From the sequence record MH051915: a DNA stretch of 64,000 nucleotides; one strand, written 5' to 3'. The notes beneath the pieces were generated by a model. The model had not been told where the DNA came from and ran no database searches. It saw only the letters and a list, made by a program, of their open reading frames with translations. The position numbers and the translations under genes were made by a program. Positions 8,843 to 31,104 of the stretch are shown in pieces. Position 1 is the stretch's first letter. The number at the start of each line of letters is the position of its first letter. Source of the stretch: Enterobacteria phage vB_EcoM_IME339.

Positions 8843-9259
8843 ATGACTCGTATTAATTTGACTTTAGTATCTGAACTTGCTGATCAACATTTAATCGCAG
8901 AATACCGTGAACTGCCGCGTGTTTTTGGTATAGTTCGTAAACATGTTGCAAATGGTAAACGGGTTAAAGATTTTAAAATATCTTCCGAGTTTATTTTAGG
9001 TTCTGGTCATGTTACGTTCTTTTATGATAAGTTAGAATTTTTGCGAAAGCGTCAATCAGACATTATAACGGAATGCTTAAAACGTGGGTTTAGTATAAAA
9101 GATACTGAAGTTCCTGACATCAGCGATATTCCAGCAGAATGGAAAAATGATTATAATCCATGCAAATCAGCTATTAAGTTGAGTCAACAACGACTCGATG
9201 AAAAAATTTTAATGAAGCCACACTGGTATAAATACTACGGTAAAAATATTTACATTTAA
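8843..9259 (+). CDS. denV: endonuclease V (pyrimidine dimer DNA glycosylase/AP lyase)
   Basis: 138 aa [29 protein letters not shown]...; matches remembered T4 endo V. Confidence 0.95.
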
Positions 9260-9268
9260 AGGAAACAC

Positions 9269-9742
9269 ATGAAAACATATCAAGAATTTATCACTGAAGC
9301 AGCTATTAATTCTCAAATTATTGCTGAATCTTTTACTGATCTTTTGAAATTTAAAAAAGGTCAAAAAATCACTGCTGTATTGGATGATGGTACAGAAGTT
9401 GAGATGGATGTACAGGGATATAATTATGCAGTAGATGGAAAACTGTATAATAAATCTCACGCTAAATTTGATTCATTTGACGACTTTGTTAATACAGTTG
9501 AAGATGAAAAAACTCGTAGATCAATTTCAACTGGCGATGCTAAGGTTCTTATGGCGCACGGCCATGAACGTATCCGCGCCAAACAGAATAAAATGGGTGA
9601 AGATAATTTTGCATTAGTTGGTTATCAATCTGGTAAGCAAACTTATGGCTATCAGCGTACTGCTACCATGTATAACAAAAATGGTAAAATCGCTTTCGTG
9701 AATAGCAAAGGCTCTATTCAGTACGTCAAATCATTCAAATAA
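9269..9742 (+). CDS. internal-protein-like capsid-targeted protein (IP family), at the ipII/ipIII position
   Basis: 157 aa; N-terminal MKTYQEFITEAAINSQIIAE capsid targeting sequence; body unlike T4 IPII/IPIII by recall. Confidence 0.65.
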   Translation: MKTYQEFITEAAINSQIIAESFTDLLKFKKGQKITAVLDDGTEVEMDVQGYNYAVDGKLYNKSHAKFDSFDDFVNTVEDEKTRRSISTGDAKVLMAHGHERIRAKQNKMGEDNFALVGYQSGKQTYGYQRTATMYNKNGKIAFVNSKGSIQYVKSFK

Positions 9743-9895
9743 GCAAATAAGAAATATGGGAACAAGCTGGACCTCATGATTCTATGAGGGATTCCCGCCA
9801 ACCTGTAATAAGGTCGAGCCTGAGTGCGGTAATGGGTAAATACAGAAATGGACAATTCATGCGCCATGGAATGGCCCAAATTTAGAGAGAATAAA

Positions 9896-10435
9896 ATGAG
9901 AACATTTTTAACTGGTCCTTATCTATCCCTGATGAATGCTTTTACACACCATTCTGATGCTAGAGTAGAAGAAATTTGTAAAAACGATTATATCCCACCA
10001 TTTGAAGACTTACTCAAACAGTATTGCACACTTCGACTAGATGGTGGACGTCAATCTGGTAAATCAACTGCTGTGACTAACTTTGCTGCTAATTGGCTGT
10101 ATGACGGTGGAACAGTTATTGTTCTTTCTAATACTTCAGCTTACGCTAAAATTTCTGCGGGCCACATTAAAAAAGAATTTTCGCGTTATTCTAATGATGA
10201 TATTCGATTCCGCTTATTTACTGATTCTGTGCGCAGTTTTATTGGCAATAAAGGAAGCAAGTTCAGGGGTTTATTGCTTTCGCGAATTTTGTATATAATT
10301 GATGAGCCTGTTAAAGCTCCCGATATGGATAAAATTTATGATATTCATATTGACACTGTACATTACTGTTGCAATAGCAAGTGTTGCATTGGTGGTATTA
10401 CTCGCCCGCAGTTTTTCGTAATTGGAATGCAATGA
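9896..10435 (+). CDS. P-loop NTPase (terminase-like Walker A)
   Basis: Walker A LDGGRQSGKST and Walker B-like ILYIIDEP; ORF track starts 9848, ATG 9896 with RBS chosen. Confidence 0.5.
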   Translation: MRTFLTGPYLSLMNAFTHHSDARVEEICKNDYIPPFEDLLKQYCTLRLDGGRQSGKSTAVTNFAANWLYDGGTVIVLSNTSAYAKISAGHIKKEFSRYSNDDIRFRLFTDSVRSFIGNKGSKFRGLLLSRILYIIDEPVKAPDMDKIYDIHIDTVHYCCNSKCCIGGITRPQFFVIGMQ

Positions 10436-10761
10436 TGACAGATACGCAACTTTTCGAATATCTTTATTTTTCGCCAAAAACTATTAAAAATAAATTGGTG
10501 AATCATTTTGAAATTTTGGCAAATAACAACGTCTTGAGCGAATTTTATCCTAAGCAATACAAATTACAAAAAGGTGTATTCAAAGGATGCAGAGTTTTGT
10601 GTACTGCTCCTAATGCAAGATTAATGAATAAAATTCCATATTTTACCATGGAATTTATTGATGGACCTTTTAAAGGACTAATCACCCAAAGTTTAATGGC
10701 ATATGATTCTGAGCCATTTTTAATTAAAGAACAATCTTGGATAAATTTATTTTCTAATTGA
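10432..10761 (+). CDS. hypothetical protein
   Basis: ORF track 10381 overlaps upstream gene; internal ATG 10432 at upstream stop chosen. Confidence 0.45.
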
Positions 10762-10769
10762 GAGGTTAT

Positions 10770-11132
10770 ATGAAAGCATATCAAATTCTTGAAGGCACGC
10801 ATAAAGGTACTATTTATTTTGAAGATGGTATTCAAGCGCGAATTATTGTTTCTAAAACCTTTAAAGAGGACTCTTTTGTAGACCCAGAAATTTTCTATGG
10901 TTTGCATGCCCGTGAAATTGAAATTGAAACACAACCTACAGTTAAAATTGAAGGTGGTCAACACCTGAACGTTAACGTTCTGCGTCGTGAAACTCTGGAA
11001 GATGCAGTTAAGCATCCGGAAAAATATCCGCAGCTGACCATCCGTGTATCCGGTTATGCAGTTCGCTTTAACTCTCTGACTCCGGAACAGCAACGCGACG
11101 TTATTGCTCGTACCTTTACTGAGAGTTTGTAA
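10770..11132 (+). CDS. autonomous glycyl-radical cofactor (GrcA/YfiD-like; T4 Y06I equivalent)
   Basis: C-terminal ~60 aa [60 protein letters not shown] matches E. coli GrcA incl. glycyl-radical motif RVSGY. Confidence 0.85.
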
Positions 11133-11353
11133 TGGCAAAGATAATTATTGAAGGTTCTGAAGATGTGTTAAATGCTTTCGCCGAATGGTTTAGTAATTCA
11201 GGCGAACAGCAATTTAATGAAGCGTGGAACATGGGTGATATTAGTGGAATTTATCCTACGACAGAAATTTCTGTTCAAGGATATGGAATTCATGAACCTA
11301 TTCGTTTAGTTGAATATGATTTATGTACTGGTGAGGAAGTCAAATATGATTGA
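11132..11353 (+). CDS. hypothetical protein
   Basis: 73 aa ORF, TAATG junction with GrcA-like gene. Confidence 0.45.
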   Translation: MAKIIIEGSEDVLNAFAEWFSNSGEQQFNEAWNMGDISGIYPTTEISVQGYGIHEPIRLVEYDLCTGEEVKYD

Positions 11354-11612
11354 AGATATTAAGGGTTATAAGCCACATACTGAAGAGAAAATCGGTAAAG
11401 TGAATGCTATCAAAGATGCTGAAGTTCGTTTAGGACTTATCTTTGATGCTTTATATGATGAATTCTGGGAAGCACTAGATAATTGTGAAGACTGTGAATT
11501 CGCGAAGAATTATGCTGAAAGCCTTGATCAGTTAACTATTGCTAAAACTAAACTCAAAGAAGCCAGTATGTGGGCTTGTCGTGCTGTGTTCCAACCAGAG
11601 GAAAAATATTAA
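11346..11612 (+). CDS. small acidic protein at the T4 vs.4 (Acb2 anti-CBASS sponge) position
   Basis: 88 aa from ATG 11346 (ORF track 11310); assignment positional, sequence not verified. Confidence 0.45.
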
Positions 11613-11890
11613 TGGCTCAATTAAGCGCAGGGTTTGGTTATGAGTATTATACTGCCCCTCGTCGTGTATCTGTCGCTCCTAAGAAAATTCAAAGTCTTGA
11701 TGACTTCCAAGAAGTAGTCCGTAAAGCTTTCCAGGACTACGCACGTTATCTTAAAGAAGATTCACAGGACTGTCTCGAAGAAGATGAAATTGCTTACTAT
11801 GAGCAGCGTCTTGAACAGCTTAAAAACCTACATGAGGTTCGTGCAGAAGTTACAAAGTCTATGAATAAATTGATTAGATTTAAAGAATAA
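11612..11890 (+). CDS. hypothetical protein
   Basis: ATG 11612 overlapping upstream stop; 92 aa. Confidence 0.45.
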
Positions 11891-11925
11891 CTGTTTACTT
11901 TTCCTCTTGACTGTGGTATAATTTT
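11890..11925 (+). promoter_or_regulatory. T4-type early promoter upstream of regB
   Basis: ctGTTTACttttcctcttgactgtggTATAAT. Confidence 0.55.
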
Positions 11926-11949
11926 TCTATCAGTTAAGAGGAGAATAAC

Positions 11950-12411
11950 ATGACTATCAACACAGAAGTTTTTATCCGTCGAAATAAGCTCCGTCGTCAC
12001 TTTGAGTCGGAGTTTCGTCAAATTAACAATGAGATTCGTGAGGCATCAAAAGCAGCAGGGGTCTCATCGTTTCATCTAAAATATTCTCAACATCTTCTTG
12101 ATCGTGCAATTCAACGGGAGATTGATGAGACATATGTTTTTGAATTATTCCACAAAATAAAAGACCATGTTTTAGAAGTTAATGAATTCCTGAGTATGCC
12201 TCCACGCCCTGATATTGACGAAGATTTTATTGATGGTGTTGAATATCGTCCTGGGCGTTTAGAAATCACAGATGGAAATCTTTGGCTTGGATTTACAGTT
12301 TGTAAACCTAATGCGAAGTTCAAAGACCCGTCGCTTCAATGCAGGATGGCAATTATCAACAGTCGTCGTTTACCGGGAAAGGCTTCTAAGGCAGTAATTA
12401 AAACTCAATGA
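11950..12411 (+). CDS. regB: RegB-like site-specific endoribonuclease
   Basis: 153 aa, size and position (upstream of vs/tk) as T4 RegB; sequence recall moderate. Confidence 0.7.
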   Translation: MTINTEVFIRRNKLRRHFESEFRQINNEIREASKAAGVSSFHLKYSQHLLDRAIQREIDETYVFELFHKIKDHVLEVNEFLSMPPRPDIDEDFIDGVEYRPGRLEITDGNLWLGFTVCKPNAKFKDPSLQCRMAIINSRRLPGKASKAVIKTQ

Positions 12412-12418
12412 GGTAAGC

Positions 12419-12964
12419 ATGAGAAAAGCACTACTCGCTGGTCTATTGGCCATTTCTATGATGGCACATAGCTCCGAGCATACTTTCAGTAATGTCCAAC
12501 TCGATAACATGCGTTACGCGTATCAATTCGGGGAACAATTTTCTAAGGATGGAAAATATAAAACACACAAAAATATCCACAAGAGCGGATTAGGCCATAT
12601 AATGGCTGCTATTTTATGGCAAGAAAGCTCTGCCGGAGTTAATTTAAAATCTAAACCAAAGCATCACGCTTATGGAATGTTCCAAAATTATTTGCCTACT
12701 ATGCGAGCGAGAGTTAAGGAACTTGGTTATAATATGACCGATGCTGAAATAAAAAGAATGTTGAATAAACGGTCCAATTCAGCTTCCTGGGCGTACATTG
12801 AACTTTCTTATTGGTTAAATATACATAAGGGCGATATAAGAAAGGCAATATCCTCTTATAATTCGGGATGGAATGTTAAAGCAGGTTCTAAATATGCTTC
12901 TGAAGTCCTAGAAAAGGCTAATTACCTTAAAAATAATAAACTTTTGGAAATAGTAAATGACTAA
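12419..12964 (+). CDS. secreted protein with lytic-transglycosylase (SLT)-like motifs
   Basis: N-terminal signal peptide MRKALLAGLLAISMMAHS; motifs WQESSAG...YGMFQN resemble SLT-domain E-S ... GLMQ. Confidence 0.6.
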   Translation: MRKALLAGLLAISMMAHSSEHTFSNVQLDNMRYAYQFGEQFSKDGKYKTHKNIHKSGLGHIMAAILWQESSAGVNLKSKPKHHAYGMFQNYLPTMRARVKELGYNMTDAEIKRMLNKRSNSASWAYIELSYWLNIHKGDIRKAISSYNSGWNVKAGSKYASEVLEKANYLKNNKLLEIVND

Positions 12965-28349: not shown

Positions 28350-28823
28350 ATGTTATTGACTGGCAAATTATACAAAGAAGAAAAACAGAAATTTTATAAT
28401 GCACAAAACGGTAAATGCTTAATTTGCCAACGAGAACTAAATCCTGATGTTCAAGCTAATCACCTCGACCATGACCACGAATTAAATGGACCAAAAGCAG
28501 GAAAGGTGCGTGGATTGCTCTGTAATCTTTGCAATGCAGCGGAAGGTCAAATGAAGCATAAATTTAATCGTTCTGGCTTAAAGGGACAAGGTGTTGATTA
28601 TCTTGAATGGTTAGAAAATTTACTTACTTATTTAAAATCCGATTACACCCAAAATAATATTCACCCTAACTTCGTTGGAGATAAATCAAAGGAATTTTCT
28701 CGTTTAGGAAAAGAGGAAATGATGGCTGAGATGCTTCAAAGAGGATTTGAATATAATGAATCTGACACTAAAACACAATTAATAGCTTCATTTAAGAAGC
28801 AGCTTAGAAAGAGTTTAAAATGA
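28350..28823 (+). CDS. 49: endonuclease VII (Holliday junction resolvase, gp49)
   Basis: 157 aa; zinc-site CLICQ...C..C; HNH-like LDHDHELNG; matches remembered T4 endo VII. Confidence 0.92.
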   Translation: MLLTGKLYKEEKQKFYNAQNGKCLICQRELNPDVQANHLDHDHELNGPKAGKVRGLLCNLCNAAEGQMKHKFNRSGLKGQGVDYLEWLENLLTYLKSDYTQNNIHPNFVGDKSKEFSRLGKEEMMAEMLQRGFEYNESDTKTQLIASFKKQLRKSLK

Positions 28824-30637
28824 CAATTGAAAAAGAAATTGAAGGATTGATTCATAAAACTAATAAAGACCTTTTGAACGAGAATGCTAATAAAGATTCT
28901 CGTGTTTTTCCAACTCAACGGGACCTTATGGCTGGTATTGTGTCTAAACACATTGCCAAAAATATGGTCCCGTCTTTTATTATGAAAGCGCATGAAAGCG
29001 GAATTATCCATTTCCATGATATTGATTATTCCCCTGCTCTTCCATTTACTAATTGCTGTTTAGTAGATTTAAAAGGAATGCTTGAAAACGGATTTAAGCT
29101 CGGTAATGCGCAGATTGAAACTCCTAAATCAATCGGCGTTGCTACTGCAATTATGGCACAAATTACTGCACAGGTTGCTTCCCATCAATATGGCGGAACG
29201 ACTTTTGCGAATGTAGATAAAGTACTTTCTCCTTATGTTAAACGCACCTATGCAAAACATATTGAGGATGCAGAAAAATGGCAAATCGCTGATGCGTTGA
29301 ATTATGCCCAATCTAAAACAGAAAAAGACGTATACGATGCATTCCAAGCTTATGAATATGAAGTAAATACTCTCTTTAGTTCAAATGGACAAACGCCTTT
29401 TGTAACAATTACATTTGGTACGGGAACTGACTGGACTGAACGAATGATTCAGAAAGCAATTCTGAAAAATCGTATTAAAGGCCTTGGCCGTGATGGAATA
29501 ACTCCTATTTTCCCTAAGCTTGTTATGTTCGTTGAAGAGGGTGTCAATCTTTATAAAGATGATCCGAACTATGATATTAAGCAGCTTGCGTTAGAATGTG
29601 CAAGCAAAAGAATGTATCCTGATATTATTTCAGCTAAGAACAATAAAGCTATCACCGGTTCATCTATTCCTGTTTCTCCAATGGGTTGCCGTAGTTTCTT
29701 AAGCGTATGGAAAGATTCGACTGGTAATGAAATTCTTGATGGACGTAATAATCTCGGTGTTGTAACACTGAATCTTCCTCGCATTGCGTTAGATTCTTAT
29801 ATTGGAACACAATTCAATGAACAGAAATTTGCCGAATTGTTCAATGAACGAATGGATTTGTGTTTTGAAGCTTTGATGTGTAGAATTAGTTCCTTAAAAG
29901 GAGTTAAAGCGACCGTTGCTCCTATTCTTTACCAAGAAGGTGCATTCGGGGTTCGTCTTAAACCTGATGACGACATAATTGAGTTATTTAAAAACGGTAG
30001 AAGTTCAGTGTCCCTAGGATACATTGGTATTCACGAATTGAATATTCTTGTCGGTCGTGATATTGGACAGGAAATTTTGACTAAAATGAATGCTCGTCTT
30101 AAACGGTGGACTGAAAGAACCGGTTTTGCTTTTAGCTTGTATTCTACTCCTGCTGAAAACCTGTGCTATCGCTTCTGTAAACTTGATACTGAAAAATATG
30201 GAAGTGTAAAAGATGTTACTGATAAAGGCTGGTACACTAATAGTTTCCATGTTTCAGTAGAAGAAAATATTACTCCGTTTGAAAAGATTTCTCGCGAAGC
30301 CCCATATCATTTCATTGCGACAGGTGGTCACATTTCTTATGTTGAACTTCCTGATATGAAAAATAACTTAAAAGGTCTTGAGGCTGTATGGGATTATGCT
30401 GCACAACATTTAGATTATTTTGGTGTTAACATGCCAGTAGATAAATGTTTTACATGTGGAAGTACCCATGAAATGACTCCTACTGAAAACGGATTTGTTT
30501 GTTCTATTTGTGGAGAAACTGATCCTAAAAAGATGAATACGATAAGAAGAACTTGTGGTTATTTGGGAAATCCGAACGAACGCGGATTTAATCTCGGCAA
30601 AAATAAAGAAATCATGCATAGGGTTAAACACCAATGA
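28820..30637 (+). CDS. nrdD: anaerobic ribonucleoside-triphosphate reductase NrdD (intron-free)
   Basis: 605 aa contiguous ORF; C-terminal zinc ribbon CFTCGS...CSICG and glycyl-radical motif RRTCGYLGN. Confidence 0.95.
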   Translation: MTIEKEIEGLIHKTNKDLLNENANKDSRVFPTQRDLMAGIVSKHIAKNMVPSFIMKAHESGIIHFHDIDYSPALPFTNCCLVDLKGMLENGFKLGNAQIETPKSIGVATAIMAQITAQVASHQYGGTTFANVDKVLSPYVKRTYAKHIEDAEKWQIADALNYAQSKTEKDVYDAFQAYEYEVNTLFSSNGQTPFVTITFGTGTDWTERMIQKAILKNRIKGLGRDGITPIFPKLVMFVEEGVNLYKDDPNYDIKQLALECASKRMYPDIISAKNNKAITGSSIPVSPMGCRSFLSVWKDSTGNEILDGRNNLGVVTLNLPRIALDSYIGTQFNEQKFAELFNERMDLCFEALMCRISSLKGVKATVAPILYQEGAFGVRLKPDDDIIELFKNGRSSVSLGYIGIHELNILVGRDIGQEILTKMNARLKRWTERTGFAFSLYSTPAENLCYRFCKLDTEKYGSVKDVTDKGWYTNSFHVSVEENITPFEKISREAPYHFIATGGHISYVELPDMKNNLKGLEAVWDYAAQHLDYFGVNMPVDKCFTCGSTHEMTPTENGFVCSICGETDPKKMNTIRRTCGYLGNPNERGFNLGKNKEIMHRVKHQ

Positions 30638-31104
30638 ATTATGATAGATTTTATCCTTGCGATTTTGTGAATGGCCCTGGATGCAGGGTCGTTCTTTTCG
30701 TTACAGGTTGTTTGCATAAATGCGAAGGGTGTTATAATAAATCAACATGGAATGCTAGAAATGGCGTTCCATTCACTGGTGAAACACTGGAACAATTAAT
30801 TGAATGTTTGAATAATGATTATATAGAAGGATTAACTATAACTGGAGGAGACCCTCTCTATCCTGATAACCGAGATGTTATTCACTCTGTGGTTCAAACA
30901 GTAAAAAATCTTTATCCAAATAAAAGCATTTGGTTGTGGACAGGATATAAATTTGAAGATATTAAACAACTAGAAATGCTTAAATATGTTGATGTTATTA
31001 TTGATGGGAAGTATGAGAAAAATCTTCCTACCAAAAAGCTGTGGCGAGGATCAGATAATCAGCGACTTTGGTCAAATACCGATGGGGTGTGGAAACATGA
31101 TTAA
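30634..31104 (+). CDS. nrdG: anaerobic RNR activating enzyme NrdG (radical SAM)
   Basis: 156 aa; radical-SAM-like CLHKCEGCYN cluster; ATGA overlap with nrdD. Confidence 0.9.
   Translation: MNYDRFYPCDFVNGPGCRVVLFVTGCLHKCEGCYNKSTWNARNGVPFTGETLEQLIECLNNDYIEGLTITGGDPLYPDNRDVIHSVVQTVKNLYPNKSIWLWTGYKFEDIKQLEMLKYVDVIIDGKYEKNLPTKKLWRGSDNQRLWSNTDGVWKHD

Follow-up and report, generated by a model that had tools for sequence, protein, structure and literature searches.

A host-derived patch, probably acquired by gene conversion, in vs.6, the GrcA-like glycyl radical gene of phage vB_EcoM_IME339

How does a phage gene come to encode a protein with the C-terminal half of its host's counterpart and an N-terminal half that is quite different, and which enzyme does such a protein serve? 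The question is raised by an open reading frame of Enterobacteria phage vB_EcoM_IME339 (sequence record MH051915), analysed here within a stretch of 64,000 nucleotides that we refer to as the window. A first-pass annotation of the letters alone had described the product as a GrcA/YfiD-like glycyl radical protein encoded alongside nrdD and nrdG, attributed its host-like C-terminus to recent capture of, or recombination with, the host gene, and suggested a role in the repair of oxygen-damaged glycyl radical enzymes. Our own reading, held with high confidence, is that the frame is vs.6 of a T4-type Tequatrovirus, an orthologue of T4 Y06I and a spare part for PflB, and that its 3′ half has been converted by host DNA. 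The identity with T4 vs.6/Y06I had escaped the first-pass annotation. The vs.6 protein, its homology and its activity are already known, and many phage records annotate it as GrcA; what we add is a map of the patch, the identity of its donor, the range of phages in which it occurs and evidence that it arose after the split of Tequatrovirus and Mosigvirus, which amounts to a modest refinement. The coordinates of the features are collected in Table 1.

Table 1. Features of vs.6 and of the nrdD/nrdG locus in the window (positions are those of the window)
Feature	Coordinates	Strand	Description
vs.6 coding sequence	10770–11132	+	ATG start, TAA stop at 11130–11132, 120 aa; T4 Y06I orthologue, GrcA/YfiD-type autonomous glycyl radical cofactor
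Putative ribosome-binding region of vs.6	10760–10769	+	GAGAGG at 10760–10765 (GAGG Shine-Dalgarno at 10762–10765), 4-nt spacer
Phage-ancestry N-half of vs.6	10770–10947	+	Codons 1–59 and first base of codon 60; GC 0.33, GC3 0.19
Proposed host-derived gene-conversion tract	10948–11122	+	173 of 175 nt shared with E. coli grcA nt 200–374; GC 0.48; residues 60–118
Predicted glycyl radical codon	11052–11054	+	GGT, Gly95 in RVSG95YAVRF; equals GrcA G102 and PflB G734
Phage-type 3′ end	11123–11132	+	Third base of GAG, then AGT TTG TAA
nrdD	28820–30637	+	Anaerobic ribonucleotide reductase; Pfam NRDD 3.2e-171, Gly_radical 1.2e-25
nrdG	30634–31104	+	NrdD activase; Fer4_12, Radical_SAM

The locus reads nudE, e (lysozyme), denV, a 157-aa ORF, vs.8, vs.7, vs.6, vs.5, vs.4, vs.3, regB, vs.1, vs and tk.4. 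The order of ORFs from vs.8 through vs.7, vs.6, vs.5, vs.4 and vs.3 to regB is that of the annotated T4 and PP01 loci, both of which carry between vs.7 and vs.5 a vs.6 gene described as GrcA, an autonomous glycyl radical cofactor. The genes flanking vs.6 are 94–98% identical to those of Tequatrovirus relatives, and the 2-kb vs.6 region is 97.7% identical to that of phage vB_Eco_F25. The profile of the phage vs.6/Y06I orthologue group, phrog_1209, matches the protein at full length (5.4e-63; residues 1–120 on profile positions 1–121), and by this match membership of the group can be regarded as complete. The ribosome-binding region overlaps the TGA stop codon of vs.7 (10759–10761), the TAA stop codon overlaps the ATG of vs.5 in a TAATG junction (11130–11134), and vs.6 appears to be read as a member of the tightly packed vs.8–vs.3 cluster. 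A scan of positions 9700–12500 for consensus promoters and terminators returned counts at or below the shuffled expectation and nothing usable for vs.6. An antisense ORF of 197 aa (10545–11138) was dismissed as mechanical, homology and synteny being found entirely on the + strand.

Two observations on the neighbourhood and annotation of vs.6 may be recorded here. The segment between e and vs.8 (window 8843–9742) varies among relatives, holding denV and the 157-aa ORF in IME339, ip10 and ipIV without denV in PP01, and denV, ipII and ipIII in T4; it looks like a variable internal-protein cassette adjoining the vs cluster. In Escherichia phage vB-Eco-KMB39 (L170:768-1185) vs.6 is annotated as two overlapping CDS with the N-half out of register, which indicates a frameshifting indel and hence either a pseudogene or a sequencing error.

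The GrcA/YfiD kind, tested here by way of TIGR04365 and IPR011140, comprises proteins of ~120–130 aa with a C-terminal glycyl radical domain. The vs.6 protein shares 74 of 100 aligned residues with E. coli GrcA (L001:402-782; BLASTP, E=9e-53). The identical run is exactly 60 residues long, E61–L120 being the same as GrcA E68–L127, and includes the motif RVSGYAVRF with the radical glycine G95 at the position of GrcA G102. The remaining N-terminal part aligns to GrcA only from residue ~20, at ~35% identity (14/40). The first-pass description, of some 60 host-like terminal residues behind a different N-terminal half, has thus proved accurate. Its designation of the product as a stand-alone glycyl radical protein of the GrcA/YfiD type is likewise borne out by the profile and structure matches: Pfam Gly_radical is found at residues 60–101 (2.2e-18) with no other domain, and the NMR structure of YfiD (PDB 6owr) is matched at 4.6e-42. 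Over the C-terminus of PflB (PDB 1h16, residues 697–759) 49 of 63 residues are identical (E=4.8e-26), and it is from the alignment to 1h16, together with PMC8683613, that Gly95 is equated with PflB G734. The GrcA equivalog model TIGR04365 matches residues 20–120 (1.4e-45) with 154.6 bits, below its curated 170-bit cutoff, which is missed because the N-half of vs.6 is divergent. In its small stand-alone size, its predicted radical glycine and its PflB-like C-terminus the vs.6 protein accordingly falls within the GrcA kind, as a phage subfamily and not as a strict equivalog in the sense of TIGR04365.

Amino acid identity alone is no proof of recent transfer, because an RB16-type phage has the same C-terminus at far lower nucleotide identity: in the vs.6 copy of an IMG/VR contig (L096), which serves as a natural control, 61 of 61 C-terminal residues equal those of E. 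coli GrcA, although the underlying DNA is no more than about 82% identical. The nucleotide alignment to E. coli grcA that had been proposed as a check was run and gave 173 identities in 175 positions over 10948–11122. Upstream of this tract the 87 aligned nucleotides are ~48% identical to E. coli grcA, and the step to 99% falls at 10948 (Fisher p=1e-23). Every one of 5426 complete E. coli genomes matches nt 179–363 of the gene at 97.3% (E=2e-81). The left edge is also a compositional boundary, with a GC of 0.33 and a GC3 of 0.19 before it and of 0.48 and 0.38, respectively, after it, the values within the tract being those of E. coli grcA; the GC content of the window is 0.35. The two mismatches to E. 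coli (11093 G>A and 11105 C>T) are both synonymous and are absent from 15 other phage sequences compared.

Of the two edges of the tract, the left one coincides with the start of phage–host homology (GAAGGTGGTCAACA, EGGQH codons), and the right one is reached ~10 nt ahead of the stop codon, so that the TAATG in which vs.6 and vs.5 overlap is left outside. At that point host sequence (TAAGGC) would destroy the start codon of vs.5, so that, to judge from the sequence, the final bases are not replaceable. The states G 11123, T 11126 and T 11127 are common to other T4-like phages, where E. coli has GAA AGC CTG, and in all Tequatrovirus and Mosigvirus copies the final ~10 nt are again of phage type (GAG AGT TTG/CTA). 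Because both the N-half and these last ~10 nt are of phage type and shared with unconverted genera, it is an internal stretch of ~175 bp that would have been replaced by host DNA. The host-identical tract is therefore best understood as gene conversion by homologous recombination within an older phage gene and not as a fresh capture. Of the two origins that the first-pass annotation had left side by side, recombination agrees with the near-perfect nucleotide match, the host composition, the sharp edges and the closeness of E. coli, while capture is contradicted by the phage ancestry of the N-half and of the last ~10 nt. In the open-access literature we found no paper describing a nucleotide-level conversion tract in vs.6; Wagner 2001 is not open access.

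The donor was sought among the grcA genes of 81 bacterial species or strains, which were compared with the last 186 nt of vs.6. The best of them, E. coli, agrees at 180 positions, another Escherichia at 178 and Citrobacter amalonaticus at 166, and in the remaining 78 species the matches are fewer and become steadily scarcer through other Enterobacterales and Pasteurellaceae. This gradient, the even base composition of grcA in the bacterium and the foreign one that the tract has in the phage together point to Escherichia as the donor and to a transfer from host to phage.

Several other explanations of the host identity have to be weighed against gene conversion. The C-terminal identity could reflect nothing more than purifying selection on a domain that changes very little, the host having recently contributed no DNA, and in every phage and bacterial copy the radical domain is indeed extremely conserved, to the point that RB16 retains every residue at diverged DNA. 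As the sole cause, however, selection on the protein is refuted by a nucleotide match that takes in the synonymous sites, is host-like in GC and has a sharp edge, when other T4-like genera show 12–25% synonymous divergence over the same codons, and we regard this explanation as highly improbable. It is also very unlikely, in our estimation, that an ancestor of the phage captured grcA whole and once, and that the N-half then diverged faster with no later conversion. The N-half can still be aligned to GrcA from residue ~20, and in the end vs.6 is homologous to grcA over both halves; but the divergence is abrupt and not gradual, passing from 48% to 99% identity and from a GC3 of 0.19 to 0.38 within one codon, sister genera share the N-half and have an old and diverged C-half, phage-type states are found again in the last ~10 nt, and Tequatrovirus and Mosigvirus differ by 11 fixed substitutions in the N-half and by none in the tract.

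Even less weight can be given to artefact or to transfer in the opposite direction. Phage lysates carry host DNA, and a host-identical stretch of 175 bp could in principle mis-assemble, but the notion of an assembly chimera or of host-read contamination in this record is refuted by the recurrence of the mosaic in independent genomes, with the same edges in the T4 reference, T2, RB27, RB32 and about 600 independent phage records. Moreover, the two substitutions in the tract are unmatched in the 15 other phage copies and in the 5426 E. coli genomes, the best matches of the latter all stopping at 97.3%, and neither the reading frame nor the TAATG junction with vs.5 is disrupted. That E. coli should have acquired the 3′ half of its grcA from a phage is a proposal with nothing specific to recommend it beyond the symmetry of identity as such. 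It is at odds with a tract composition that is E. coli-like and foreign to a 35% GC phage, with the similar GC of the two halves of E. coli grcA (0.47 for the N-half, 0.49 for the C-half) and with the way in which the bacterial matches fall from E. coli to other Escherichia, Citrobacter and distant genera, as for vertical bacterial descent; its probability is negligible.

Gene conversion by the host thus being the preferred reading, the distribution of the tract bears on its age. The tract is present in vs.6 of both Tequatrovirus and Mosigvirus. In CC31-, RB16/RB43-, KP15- and JD18-type phages the N-halves of vs.6 are homologous to those of the two genera, and the C-halves are diverged, being 75–88% identical to E. 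coli. Fixed differences between Tequatrovirus and Mosigvirus were counted in nine and six copies, respectively, KMB39 being left out of the N-half statistics for its frame-shifting indel: 11 lie in nt 1–178 and 0 in nt 179–353, the last of them at 10939, 9 nt before the tract. The tract consequently arose after the two lineages of the N-half had separated. When IME339 is compared with Mosigvirus phages, identity is 66–73% in the flanking genes, 88% in the N-half of vs.6 and 96–99% in the tract, and in copies of both genera (L085 and fHoEco02; L088 and RPN187) nt 179–351 agree with E. coli at 100% of positions. Among 15 phage copies 19 sites of the tract vary, 18 of them synonymously and one nonsynonymously (R73H of T4), with a 2:1 bias towards A/T; the variants are mostly private or limited to a few related copies, and purifying selection can be taken to act on the tract. 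The two genera may have undergone conversion separately, perhaps more than once, or else a single converted tract spread between phages.

The N-half has a distribution of its own. Between the two genera it is 88% identical (IME339 against L164–L167) while vs.7, vs.5 and vs.4 are 66–73% identical, which implies either a strong constraint that would be unusual for a supposedly disordered region or a movement of the whole gene between genera. In Yersinia phage PYps32T (H98), for which the N-half alone was compared, it is 97.2% identical to that of IME339.

A more tentative proposal, which we consider possible but somewhat doubtful, is that the radical domain of vs.6 is repeatedly re-converted by the grcA of the current host, in a concerted evolution of the phage gene and its host counterpart. 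A first, rare conversion would have left the gene with a ~175-bp stretch perfectly homologous to the chromosome and so have made later conversions easy; these would erase phage-specific drift and keep the spare part matched to host PflB and PflA. The lack of fixed tract differences between the genera, the occurrence of E. coli-identical copies in both, the mostly private nature of the variants and a jump in GC within vs.6 of phage JD18 speak in favour of recurrence. Within a genus, L088 and HY126 have identical N-halves and differ at four tract sites, a signal of re-conversion that is suggestive and not significant. Conversion is not automatic, however, since Krischvirus-type and other E. coli-infecting T4-like genera lack the tract. 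Nor was the tract reset by the isolation host in CrRp10 (L169), a Tequatrovirus isolated on Citrobacter that keeps the E. coli version with three differences in nt 179–351. A single conversion followed by spread from phage to phage would be the alternative to recurrence.

The jump in GC just mentioned was observed in the Jiaodavirus copies of vs.6, those of Klebsiella phage JD18 (L171:823-1185) and of an IMG/VR contig (L108), and rises from ~0.37 to 0.55–0.60 at the same codon as in IME339. These genes carry the Klebsiella/Enterobacter-type residues LLDAVEH. In a donor comparison that covered three grcA sequences, the JD18 tract matches a Klebsiella-like ung–grcA contig (L173) at 161 of 174 positions (92.5%), K. 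aerogenes at 158/174 and E. coli at 151/174. When the JD18 C-half was searched against 5.8 billion proteins, most of the matches were truncated pieces of GrcA, ordered by how short they were; two of the matches were useful and had their DNA compared. The JD18-type tract is probably a second host-derived tract, the donor of which would be unsampled or older.

Outside the relatives of T4, GrcA-like stand-alone genes were also seen in T5-like phages of Salmonella, E. coli and Providencia (contigs of 100–120 kb; L120–L150, L158) and in jumbo phages (contigs of 345–357 kb; L107, L109, L110). Their N-halves are quite different, and their C-halves are ~63–72% identical to E. coli in nucleotides; by these matches the predicted spare part has a wide distribution in phages of enterobacteria, not confined to the relatives of T4. 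Several further 'viral' contigs of IMG/VR (L152–L156, L159–L162) encode full-length pflB-like C-termini at bacterial GC and are likely to be bacterial sequence.

Which enzyme the protein serves can be approached from work on its orthologue. According to PMC8683613, which cites Wagner 2001, the PFL activase (PFL-AE) puts a glycyl radical on YfiD and on T4 Y06I, both of ~14 kDa, and the radicalised proteins form a complex with O2-cleaved PFL and restore its activity in vitro; the same article names the two as the only validated spare parts. In YfiD the N-terminus is disordered, helps the installation of the radical by PFL-AE and is dispensable for catalysis (PMC13450708, a 2026 review). The same spare-part mechanism is expected of vs.6 in IME339 because its radical domain is identical to that of YfiD. 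By analogy with the T4 orthologue, for which the mechanism is reported, host PFL activase (PflA) would place the radical on Gly95; the activated protein would then dock on PflB that oxygen has cleaved at Gly734 and stand in for the lost radical domain, so that the conversion of pyruvate to acetyl-CoA and formate is restored. The benefit may be a continued fermentative supply of acetyl-CoA and ATP in an infected gut bacterium whose own expression is shut off and in which oxygen fluctuates. The patch makes the radical domain residue-identical to that of the host spare part and should let it fit host PflB and PflA equally well. In the searchable literature we did not find an in vivo phenotype for a vs.6 mutant.

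The conjecture that the protein repairs oxygen-damaged glycyl radical enzymes accordingly holds for PFL, on the account of T4 Y06I in PMC8683613; the implied link to NrdD and NrdG finds no support. Both of the latter are encoded in the window, as the first-pass annotation had noted, yet not adjacent to vs.6: they lie 17.7 kb downstream and are separate from its unit. One may still ask whether the vs.6 product, activated by NrdG, serves to repair the NrdD of the phage and not host PFL. The phage encodes both partners, NrdD is likewise a glycyl radical enzyme that oxygen damages, and its radical domain, like that of vs.6, matches Pfam Gly_radical; an early comparative paper guessed at a role in nucleotide metabolism from this shared domain (PMC1524935), and whether glycyl radical enzymes besides PFL have spare parts is, according to a recent review, not yet known (PMC13450708). 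A spare part for NrdD should have a radical domain that is specifically NrdD-like, which that of vs.6 is not. Its best BLASTP match to the NrdD of the window has E=9.7 and leaves the radical motifs unaligned, and NrdD carries RRTCGYLG followed by an unrelated tail, unlike the RVSGYAVRF of vs.6. Since there is no specific similarity to NrdD and the two genes are 17.7 kb apart, and with 49/63 residues shared with the C-terminus of PflB, 60/60 with the host's own PFL spare part and a published activity of T4 Y06I on PFL (PMC8683613), we take host PFL as the target and rate the NrdD proposal a very slim one.

The gene and its activity have been known since 2001, so that no new field is opened by these results. 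What vs.6 offers is a clean and datable case of an auxiliary metabolic gene that appears to be kept host-compatible by recombination with the host chromosome: a whole functional domain would have been swapped, with edges that can be placed to a few bases, of which the right one is just short of the overlap with the start of vs.5. The case also carries two warnings, namely that amino acid identity alone does not establish recent transfer, as RB16 illustrates, and that a Pfam domain shared with NrdD does not imply a role in nucleotide metabolism. If recurrent conversion were true, vs.6 would be a natural marker from which the recent hosts of a T4-type phage could conveniently be read.

Among known systems, the vs.6 protein may first be set beside E. 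coli GrcA (YfiD), which is likewise a stand-alone protein of ~14 kDa with the same last 60 residues, radical glycine included. It differs from GrcA in being 7 aa shorter and in its N-terminal 59 residues, of which the part that aligns is ~35% identical, and the gene sits in a phage early-gene cluster, whereas E. coli grcA adjoins ung. The C-terminal glycyl radical domain of PflB is the piece that the spare part replaces, and vs.6 encodes this domain alone, without the 700-residue catalytic barrel of PflB. T4 Y06I (NP_049730) is encoded, as here, by 363 nt between vs.7 and vs.5 and is 97–98% identical in nucleotides and at 118 of 120 residues. The host-derived tract of T4 has the same left edge as that of the IME339 copy and matches E. 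coli one codon further 3′, with GAA in place of GAG. T4 has P54 and H73 where IME339 has T54 and R73, and owing to R73H the radical domain is fully identical to GrcA in IME339 and not in T4. The psbA gene of cyanophages is a further parallel, a phage copy of a host metabolic gene that carries host-type patches introduced by homologous recombination and keeps its compatibility with host partners. In vs.6 the gene, the host and the phage group are different, and the patch is one complete functional domain with a forced left edge.
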